From positions 1 through 64,000 of the forward strand of contig CAVPGK010000026.1 of NCBI GenBank assembly GCA_963703955.1: a stretch of 64,000 bases of DNA. The letters are read 5' to 3'. Origin of the DNA: Nitrospirota bacterium (GTDB taxonomy: Bacteria; Nitrospirota; Nitrospiria; Nitrospirales; Nitrospiraceae). Below are positions 14,480 to 15,814 of this stretch, piece after piece (the stretch's first letter is position 1; the number at the start of each line of letters is the position of its first letter). Made by a program: the position numbers and the translations under genes. Below the pieces are notes generated by a model. The model was not told where the DNA came from. It worked only from the letters and a program-made list of their open reading frames with translations, and did no database searches.

Positions 14480-14519
14480 AATTCTCTCCTCTCTTAAGAG
14501 GCATAACTTGTATCTTTAC

Positions 14520-14700
14520 TTTTTCATGTATGAAAACATCGTCAAAGCCAACCAGGACGGGATAGATCGGAACTAACTTGGTCGCCGAGACCGTTCAATA
14601 GCATGGGTCATCCCGTTCTGCCTCCTCAAGAGCTCGAACAGTTGCCTGGGCTGGAAAGAGCCCGCATCATACGCAAGACCGAGCCGCGATGGAGGCGTCT
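14520..14700 (+). ncRNA. Predicted IS110 bridge RNA (exact ends uncertain)
   Basis: Two large internal loops closed by stems (14553-14568/14606-14620 and 14632-14636/14680-14684), each with an inner hairpin; loop segments match the target flanks and the donor junction. Confidence 0.8.
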
Positions 14701-14718
14701 AGAAGAAAGGAGGCTGCG

Positions 14719-15672
14719 ATGGCGGAAGTGACACCCACCTTTGTCGGCATCGATGTGTCCAAAACACAGCTGGATGTGGCACTGCGTCCGTCGGGTGCCA
14801 CGAAGTCTGTGCTCAACGACGACCCCGGGATCAAGACCCTGGTGGAGTGGCTGGGTGTGGTCACCCCTGCGTTGATCGTGCTTGAAGCCACGGGGGGTAT
14901 CGAACGGGCGGTGGTGCGGGCTCTGGTGGCAGCCGAGCTGCCCGTCACGGTGGCCAATCCACGTCAGGTGCGCGATTTTGCCAAGGCCACAGGGCAATTG
15001 GCTAAAACAGATACGCTCGATGCTCAGATCTTGGCTCGCTTTGCCGAAGCGGTGCGCCCAGGGCTGCGCCCCTTGCCGGATGACATGACCGCGGCCCTGC
15101 GGGCGCTGCTCACCCGTCGACGCCAACTCATCGAAATGCTGACCGCTGAAAAAAACCGGCTGAGTCGGGCTCCCCGACAAGTGCACAAGCGGATTGAGGC
15201 CCACATTGGCTGGCTGCAAACAGAACTGGAGCGAGCCGATGCGGACCTCGATCAAACGATCCGTCAAAGTCCCATCTGGCGTGAGCAGGAAGATCTCCTC
15301 AAGAGTGTGCCGGGGATCGGGCCTGTGGTCAGTCGCACCGTACTGGCCGAGCTGCCTGAGCTGGGAAGCTTGAACCGCAAACAGATTGCGGCGCTTGTCG
15401 GAGTCGCCCCACTGAATTGGGATAGCGGCACGCTGCGGGGGCGCCGCGCGATTTGGGGTGGTCGGGCGCACGTGCGGACTGCTCTCTACATGGCTGCGTT
15501 GGCTGCCAGCAGACATAATCCCGTGATCCGAGACTTTTACAGAAGGTTGCGTGCAGCGGGCAAAGCGCCTACCGTTGCCCTGGTTGCCTGCATGCGCAAG
15601 CTCCTGGTCATCCTCAATGCGATGCTCAGACATCGCGTTCCGTGGCGGCCAGTAGTTGCTCAAATTCCTTGA
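14719..15672 (+). CDS. IS110 recombinase (DEDD RuvC-like + Tnp domain)
   Basis: GIDVSK, LEATG, KTDTLDA, PGIG and APLNWDSG (Ser); AAAGGAGG RBS; uninterrupted frame. Confidence 0.97.
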
Positions 15673-15689
15673 AACTGAACACAGTTGCT

Positions 15690-15814
15690 ATTGAGTATGC
15701 TGATCCGGCATAGTACACACCAACAGCTTGCAAACTAGCGCATCATTCTTTAGTTCTTTCAATCACTTGTCAACCTCCCCGTGGGGCTGGGTCGGCGTGC
15801 TATACAGACCGGCA
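15690..15814 (-). promoter_or_regulatory. Pc-like promoter + attI-like module, copy interrupted by IS110
   Basis: Minus strand TGCCGGTCTGTATAGCAC...TTGACA (15773-15768), 17 bp, AAGAAT...GTACTATGCCGGATCAGCATACTCAAT; homologous to 2052-2184. Confidence 0.7.

Follow-up and report, generated by a model that had tools for sequence, protein, structure and literature searches.

The DNA considered in this study is a stretch of 64,000 nucleotides, which I will call the window: positions 1 to 64,000 of contig CAVPGK010000026.1, from the assembly GCA_963703955.1 of a Nitrospirota bacterium (family Nitrospiraceae). It carries an insertion sequence (IS) of the IS110 group, lying between a repeat that resembles the attI region of an integron and the cassette side of that site, and a predicted guide RNA at one end of the element appears to be matched to that site. 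I will refer to the genome (3.3 Mb in 28 contigs, 82% complete) as G000 and to contigs by the letter C and a number, the contig of the window being C26; other labels beginning with G are related genomes, and labels beginning with L are loci. In the sequences given, a slash marks a junction or crossover point.

A reading made earlier from the letters of the window (the original prediction) placed the IS at 14501-15716. An IS110 element is indeed there, but that range takes in flanking sequence, and the limits that emerge from comparison with other copies are as follows:

14509-15689, plus strand: insertion sequence of the IS110 group, 1181 bp long with one CT (the right-hand core) included, its ends set by three copies
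14507-14508, plus strand: left CT core dinucleotide, derived from the target; CT flanks all three copies and the related elements
15688-15689, plus strand: right CT core dinucleotide, from the reading of the junction
14689-15672, plus strand: recombinase open reading frame (ORF), 327 aa from the ATG at 14689, or 317 aa from the ATG at 14719

The three copies in G000 are that of the window, one on C10 that is 100% identical to it over 1180 bp, and one on C6 that is 94% identical and has a decayed transposase gene. Because the C10 and C6 copies share the ends and the CT cores, the boundaries of the element are fixed independently. The junctions read ..GGCATAA-CT/TGTATC.. on the left and ..ACAGTTG-CT/ATTGAG.. 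on the right, exactly as originally claimed. CT stands on both sides of all three copies, empty sites have a single CT, and no longer duplication is present. The occurrence of identical copies in differing flanks indicates recent movement.

The recombinase contains the domains PF01548 (90.6 bits, cut-off 29) and PF02371 (72.8 bits, cut-off 21.3) and aligns to the IS621 transposase, 8wt6, over residues 18-319 with an E-value of 1.1e-44, in a HMMER alignment that keeps the catalytic positions of the DEDD and Ser-Gly motifs (GIDvsk, lEATG, kTDtlDa and wdSG). The catalytic residues of IS621 are given as D11, E60, D102, D105 and S241 (Hiraizumi et al. 2024, PMC11208158), and mapping onto this numbering assumes an offset of +2 for the PDB chain. 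The likelier of the two starts is the ATG at 14719, which stands behind AAGGAGG at 14706-14712. Non-coding sequence amounts to 180 nt upstream of the ORF (14509-14688) and to 17 nt on its downstream side (15673-15689). IS1111 elements have their long non-coding region downstream of the gene and IS110 elements have it upstream (Siddiquee et al. 2024, PMC11187229), so its position here, 5' of the gene, makes the layout that of IS110 and not that of IS1111. Judged from these features of its sequence, 14509-15689 is an IS110-group element.

The predicted bridge RNA and its guides

The left end of the element folds into two stem-loops, with a minimum free energy of -62.7 kcal/mol (z = -2.35). The stems are conserved in an alignment of 50 sequences (A1), where 11 of the 16 consensus pairs show compensatory changes. 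Fold and alignment together give the following predicted features:

14554-14700, plus strand: predicted bridge RNA region, a pair of stem-loops that both contain an internal loop (the first target-binding, the second donor-binding)
14570-14578, plus strand: left target guide, 5' side of loop 1, GAACTAACT (RNA GAACUAACU), in the sense of the left flank plus core (..CTAACT)
14595-14601, plus strand: right target guide, 3' side of loop 1, TCAATAG (RNA UCAAUAG), the reverse complement of CT+ATTGA
14638-14646, plus strand: left donor guide, loop 2, ACAGTTGCC (RNA ACAGUUGCC), matching the right end of the IS, ACAGTTG-CT, at 8 of 9 positions
14673-14677, plus strand: right donor guide, loop 2, GCAAG, of which CAAG is the reverse complement of the core CT plus TG (the start of the left end)

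The two target-guide sequences are present at the positions where the original prediction had found them, and the donor guides are almost invariant across the 50 aligned sequences. Durrant et al. (2024, PMC11208160) assign these same strands to the left and right target guides of bridge RNAs. The relation between guides and flanks was assessed in a set of 79 loci whose transposases are related to this one (58-82% identity; for the most part Nitrospira records) plus a relative present in seven copies in the genome G023. Both ends could be located in 53 elements, 46 of them distinct, and the comparison was made at the non-core positions of the columns that hold the guides of the window. The 46 distinct elements match their own flanks at 4.1 of 6 positions for one guide and 4.5 of 5 for the other, as compared to 1.8 of 6 and 1.7 of 5 in a control of 2026 mismatched guide-flank pairs. 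The claim that this is an IS110 element with a bridge RNA, and that the two named stretches are its target guides, is thus borne out by their placement on the two sides of loop 1, by the strand rule and by co-variation in 46 relatives; by this comparison the assignment of the target guides is well supported.

Rfam, searched at gathering scores, returned only tRNAs and no family matching the bridge RNA. With E-values up to 10 it added only a match to a long non-coding RNA and a sub-threshold match to sX15, a small RNA of Xanthomonadaceae (14542-14699, minus strand; 23.5 bits where the gathering score is 55; E = 0.054). The sX15 match falls on the strand opposite the bridge RNA and is probably a mirror of its hairpins. 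A metatranscriptome run provided two short contigs that cover the ORF only and are uninformative on expression of the guide RNA.

Two observations on related RNAs may be added. L198 (G008:C26) holds, at 285-381, a solitary piece of 97 nt that is 93% identical to the part of the bridge RNA between the left target guide and the donor loop, both included; no transposase gene accompanies it, and it is probably debris of the same lineage. In G023, three of the five examined copies of the seven-copy IS (L013, L029 and L036) share a repeated context, ..GTACTGT[CT]TCAAGTAC-GC-CT/TGGTCCTTCGCGGCTG.., the right flank of which fits the guide only with G:T wobble pairs.

The sites that the element occupies

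Read on the attI strand, the target in the window is ..ACTCAAT-AG/TTAGGC, where the AG next to TT corresponds to the CT core. The original prediction had the element inserted at the G^TT crossover of an attI-like site, which holds insofar as the CT core corresponds to the AG standing directly 5' of TT. It also compared the minus strand of the site, with the IS deleted, to an IS-free site at 2151-2184, and the match of 30 out of 35 columns (with 4 mismatches and 1 gap) is correct. It missed a third site, at 944-960. Allowing up to 2 mismatches, the motif CAGYAYACTYANTAGTT occurs three times in the window where 0.01 instances are expected, and none of 100 shuffled sequences reached three. Genome-wide there are two families of repeats, type B of about 165 bp and type A of about 190 bp:

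2023-2184, plus strand: type B repeat, IS-free (element including the integrase tail, 2007-2184), ending ..CAGTAG/TTAGGC; next ORF from 2201
15688-15814 (from 15690 with the CT core left out), minus strand: type B attI-like upstream part, severed from the cassette side by the IS, with a promoter-like TTGACA-17-AAGAAT at 15773 to 15745
14063-14506, minus strand: cassette side of the split site, with TTATGCC, a ribosome-binding site (RBS) and a DUF6010 gene (14479-14063)
C21:137248-137409, C16:93549-93702, C16:4195-4348, C13:139352-139457 and C23:5071-5346: other type B copies, with a fragment at C23:50836-50869
923-966, plus strand: type A, IS-free 3' part (last 44 bp), ending ..TTATTAG/TTAGGC; next ORF from 975
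C21:805-1000, C10:188367-188542 and C1:27341-27516: other type A copies

The repeats precede unrelated genes, and the similarity among seven of the genomic copies stops at GTTAGGC. Each of the attI regions keeps a promoter-like TTGACA-17-(A/G)AGAAT directed into the cassette side. In the IS-free type B element (2007-2184) it is found at 2094-2122; in the interrupted one it is directed at the IS and the cassette, and the IS, besides splitting the core, puts 1181 bp between this promoter (15773 to 15745) and the DUF6010 gene (14479). The identical copies of the IS occupy different types of site, type B on C26 and type A on C10. At the upstream end of the IS-free element, 2007-2027 reads LSPSQV and a stop, the last six codons of an integrase (its C-terminal tail), and integrase C-terminal remnants precede two of the copies in G000, one on C21 (76% over 37 aa) and one on C16 (40% over 90 aa).

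The nature of the repeats is clearer in the relatives, whose integrases were scored with the integron-integrase model TIGR02249 (cut-off 265 bits). In the complete genome G023, a 469-aa protein scores 445 bits, and its stop codon is where a type B element begins; the element lies on the same strand as the integrase gene, an inverted arrangement rather than a divergent one. The element ends ..CAATAG/TTAGGCC and is followed by an RBS, a 124-aa ORF and a canonical 60-nt attC, GCCTAAC..GTTAGGC. A second integrase in the same genome (403 bits) has the same order with a different element, ending ..TTAATAG/TTAGAC, and a 97-nt attC that ends GTTAGAC. Within each integron the attI junction and the end of the attC agree in the bases that follow the G (TTAGGCC in one, TTAGAC in the other), and these bases differ between the two integrons, as insertion by recombination of attI with attC predicts. 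The original description of the target as attI-like therefore stands, the repeat ending at 2184 being homologous to the stretch between the 445-bit integrase and the cassette ORF with its attC.

Of 61 related genomes, 15 gave integrase matches with an E-value no higher than 1e-30, 8 of these exceeding the cut-off. A single motif like ..A[AT]TAGTTAG, in the wider pattern ..A[ATG][AT]GTT[ACG]G, occurs 127-202 nt past the stop codon in 12 of the 19 sequences taken from downstream of integrases (a set that includes one place counted twice). The seven without it comprise one that is split by an IS256-like element, one that runs off its contig, two with close variants and three with nothing. Elements of the same type keep their sequence up to TTAG and have nothing in common beyond it. 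Type A is found downstream of integrase fragments in G013, G016 and G006. In G027, where an integrase of 457 bits belongs to an intact-looking integron, the attI has the same 11-bp target as the occupied site on C10. There are also clade-specific direct repeats in the attI region, which are compatible with integrase binding sites and prove nothing. I conclude that the repeats are attI regions belonging to integrons in which the integrase gene is directed at the cassettes, their putative attI function being read from position and sequence. As for the check, proposed in the original prediction, of whether such sites lie next to intI, the relatives do have an integrase upstream on the same strand, but the platforms in G000 are decayed ones only.

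Several observations concern the surroundings of these sites. In the dispersed relics, about a dozen in number, it is often just the last codons of intI that persist together with attI. At 1990-2030, and at about 5240-5346 of C23, an extra ..GAT[AG]GTTAGG and an RBS-like GAGAGGAGAG stand just 5' of the integrase tail; the module of tail and attI has seemingly been placed behind another attI-like core, and the window and C23 are 94.5% identical over 183 bp at this place. The attI regions seem to gather insertions of other kinds: an IS256-like element with a 420-aa mutator-type transposase splits the attI of an apparently intact integron in G023 (about 130-1490 of L062, G023:C1:2946921-2949989), and an IS3-family pair (L045:3153-4381) abuts the attI relic C16:4195-4348 in G000.

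Two neighbourhoods within the window are also worth recording. Upstream of the interrupted attI, where an integrase gene is expected, lies a toxin-antitoxin cluster (15831-18265) consisting of ParE and a ribbon-helix-helix protein (15831-16404), Phd and a PIN protein (16571-17449), and BrnT (17990-18265), the 3' end of which is overlapped by an unassigned 99-aa ORF (17743-18042). Some 1.5 kb away from the IS-free attI that ends at 2184, a truncated tyrosine recombinase, represented by its C-terminal part (3608-4048), overlaps or adjoins a tRNA gene that lies on the other strand (3957-4030) and may be the edge of an integrated island.

The attI reading and its alternatives

Elements with the same guides as that of the window occur elsewhere in comparable places. 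L201 (86% protein identity) lies in a type-B-like site. L118 and L200 (82% protein identity) lie in the attI type of the second integron of G023, and in L200 the C-terminus of an integrase (87% over aa 409-460, to the end of the contig) stops 198 nt from the insertion. G022 has a truncated same-guide copy bordering directly on an attI, at a distance of about 170 nt from the stop codon of what remains of an integrase C-terminus (in a 108-aa ORF). Contigs from soil metagenomes join a near-identical IS to another type-B-like flank, and one has ..GTCTAACT as its left flank. Other guides and other targets are found at 78 of the 79 related loci, so the attI-directed elements form a small lineage, in which the guides have stayed the same over a protein divergence of as much as 18%.

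I therefore consider it very probable that the window contains an active IS110-group IS with the target loop of its bridge RNA programmed for the core of the integron attI crossover. What is observed here is the anatomy of the element, the complementarity of guides and flanks, their co-variation, the homology of the sites to attI and repeated independent insertions.

The process may be pictured as follows. The 3' guide would read the constant side of attI (ATTGA.., the complement of ..TCAAT), and the 5' guide would read CTAA plus the core, the complement of AG/TTAG, in which TTAG would be the start of the TTRRRY half-site brought by each cassette. The original prediction divided the guides in the same way, one on the constant half of attI and the other on the cassette-derived half, and the ATTGA.. 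and AG/TTAG sides of the target agree with it. The joined ends of the element itself (ACAGTTG-CT-TG) would be read by the donor-binding loop. On the model of IS621, the complex of recombinase and RNA would then pair the target with a circular copy of the element, and strands would be exchanged at the CT core. The element would land between the attI promoter and the first gene, in one orientation, with the transposase gene reading towards intI. The targets available in G000 would be about a dozen dispersed relics of integron platforms, made up of integrase tail, promoter and attI. I infer the production of the RNA, catalysis, and whatever effect there may be on the expression or capture of cassettes.

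A bolder version, which I regard as doubtful, would make the element a dedicated parasite or switch of integrons. It would read a word that all the local classes of attI must keep for the integrase, uncouple the promoter and destroy the site of capture. Toggling of the integron off and on is conceivable because excision of IS110-type elements restores the target, and recombination between attI copies guided by the same RNA might scatter modules of tail, promoter and attI.

Several results weigh against the reading that the guides are programmed for attI. None of the three occupied sites fits both guides perfectly, each having at least one guide mismatch. G000, at 82% completeness, has no integron integrase over the cut-off (best 62 against 265 bits), and a strict, crude scan for attC, which recovered the G023 control and may miss sites, found none near the sites in the window. 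Across the genome the attC scan gave 10 matches at 6 distinct places (four being counted on both strands) and no array. With no integrase and no attC array, the targets in G000 are mostly relics and not working integrons. Among the insertions examined, no copy was seen in an attI whose integron can be shown to be intact: the sequence of L200 stops 52 aa into the integrase, and G022 retains just the remnant within the 108-aa ORF. The site of the C6 copy has only ACTCAATAGTTA (12 nt) in common with attI. Its right flank, sought in 61 genomes, was found only in G000 and as one marginal match of 22 nt, and a flank that has no homologue in relatives leaves the site impossible to class. The original prediction had named homologous insertions with unrelated flanks as what would refute it, and on this point the outcome favours it: the same-guide relatives lie in the same motif beside integrase remnants. 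C6 qualifies this, since homology to attI does not extend beyond the 12 nt there.

The exact pattern of the target loop was moreover found in 1 of 401 sampled genomes of the phylum, G000 itself, and in none of the 400 others, so the lineage is rare. One metagenome scan for the pattern gave 3 loci, of which L199 amounts to no more than 19 nt, either a remnant or a coincidental match. Contigs from 4 public runs were mapped to the region, and none of them connects the two flanks across the IS, so that the empty-site form was not seen. A side observation touches the C6 site: beside the decayed copy, at C6:159157-159236 (L051:4158-4237), is a 24-nt tandem repeat in 3.5 copies, consensus GTTGAAACTAACTCTTATGGAGGG, each unit of which holds a word resembling the target of the IS and which has no homologue in 60 relatives.

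One may ask whether integrons matter to the element at all. It might home to a dispersed intergenic repeat that carries a promoter or leader, as other elements do to repetitive extragenic palindromic (REP) sequences, and the link to integrons would then be a matter of history with no bearing on the IS. The target was in fact read at first as a REP-like or promoter repeat, and this reading was dropped after the comparison with the integrase, attI and attC of G023. I now think it improbable, even though about 12 copies of the repeat stand on 8 contigs ahead of unrelated genes, the repeat carries a conserved promoter-like site, neither an intact integrase nor an attC array was found in G000, and members of both IS110 and IS1111 are known to target REPs (PMC11208160, PMC11187229). 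The guides read only about 11 bp at the crossover, and this is the sole stretch common to at least three otherwise dissimilar types of attI. The same-guide relatives (82-86%) lie in attI types that elsewhere follow full-length integrases and precede cassettes bearing attC, and the 11-bp target in the intact-looking G027 integron is identical to that occupied on C10.

The fit of guides to attI might alternatively be an accident of a short target, a word of 11-12 nt that happens to sit in the repeats with no evolved relation to integrons. By arithmetic, an 11-mer is expected by chance about 1.6 times on both strands of a 3.3-Mb genome, the C6 copy is an insertion at a bare 12-nt match, and the other members of the clade have unrelated targets at those 78 of 79 loci. 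Set against this are at least six separate insertions from four sources in attI-like contexts (C26, C10, G022, L118, L200 and L201) and the conservation of the guides despite the divergence of the protein, and I judge such an accident to be very improbable.

That the element belongs to the known IS1111-attC group and that its sites are attC can hardly be credited, for although the sites end in GTTAGGC, the consensus of the attC R' site, and IS1111 members with seekRNAs target attC (PMC11187229), the transposase gene has its long non-coding region upstream and a mere 17 nt downstream, the sites follow integrase stop codons, have no R'' partner and show unremarkable single-strand folds, and the real attC of G023, ..GGCG/TTAGGC, is without AG at the position of the core, so the guides do not fit a canonical attC. 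An attC reading of the target had been tried on the 161-nt element, whose single-stranded DNA folds gave z values of -2.04 and -1.66, and it was contradicted.

Comparison with known systems

If the element is indeed programmed for attI, its choice of target sets it apart from the two groups known to specialise on integrons, IS1111-attC elements and group IIC-attC introns, both of which target attC. An element aimed at attI would strike the single site of cassette capture and expression. Its guide RNA would also show independently where the crossover lies in a little-known type of integron, with a same-strand integrase, in nitrifying Nitrospira, the attI sites of which can now be read by comparison. 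For the biology of bridge RNAs, the lineage would offer a natural case in which one pair of guides stays constant over 18% protein divergence and several target backgrounds. No published targeting of attI by such elements was found in the literature searched, whose coverage excluded subscription journals, nor was any description of attI sites for these Nitrospira integrons found there. The account of IntegronFinder 2.0 has only 2 CALIN (attC clusters that come without an integron integrase) in the phylum and describes attI as poorly characterised outside class 1.

The relatives from Nitrospira, with intI, attI and cassettes on one strand, are like the inverted integrase group of integrons, the likeness being drawn from layout and not from phylogeny. 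In that group intI reads in the same direction as the cassettes. The name of the group is used in PMC3575428.

The element resembles the IS1111-attC group (ISPa21, ISKpn4, ISPst6 and ISPa25) with its seekRNAs (PMC11187229) in having a recombinase of the DEDD type, in being, as predicted, guided by RNA and in its apparent specialisation on integron sites. In IS1111-attC elements, however, the guide RNA lies downstream and the insertion hits one arm of attC, whereas here the element is of the IS110 group, the RNA lies upstream, and the target would be the attI crossover. Tetu and Holmes (2008) and Post and Hall (2009) are reportedly the references for the IS1111-attC group. Group IIC-attC introns are likewise mobile elements that home to recombination sites of integrons (PMC3001079), but unlike the element of the window they are retroelements that target attC by an unrelated mechanism.

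With IS621 and other IS110 bridge recombinases (Durrant et al. 2024, PMC11208160; Hiraizumi et al. 2024, PMC11208158) the element shares the same two protein domains, the non-coding RNA upstream of the gene, the CT core and a target of about 11 bp. As in IS621, the predicted RNA has two internal loops, and in each the 5' guide would pair with the bottom strand and the 3' guide with the top strand. IS621 has REP targets, and the natural target here would be the crossover of an integron attI. The mechanism would be the already known one of IS621-type bridge recombinases; what would be new, as far as the literature searched shows, is attI as the target.

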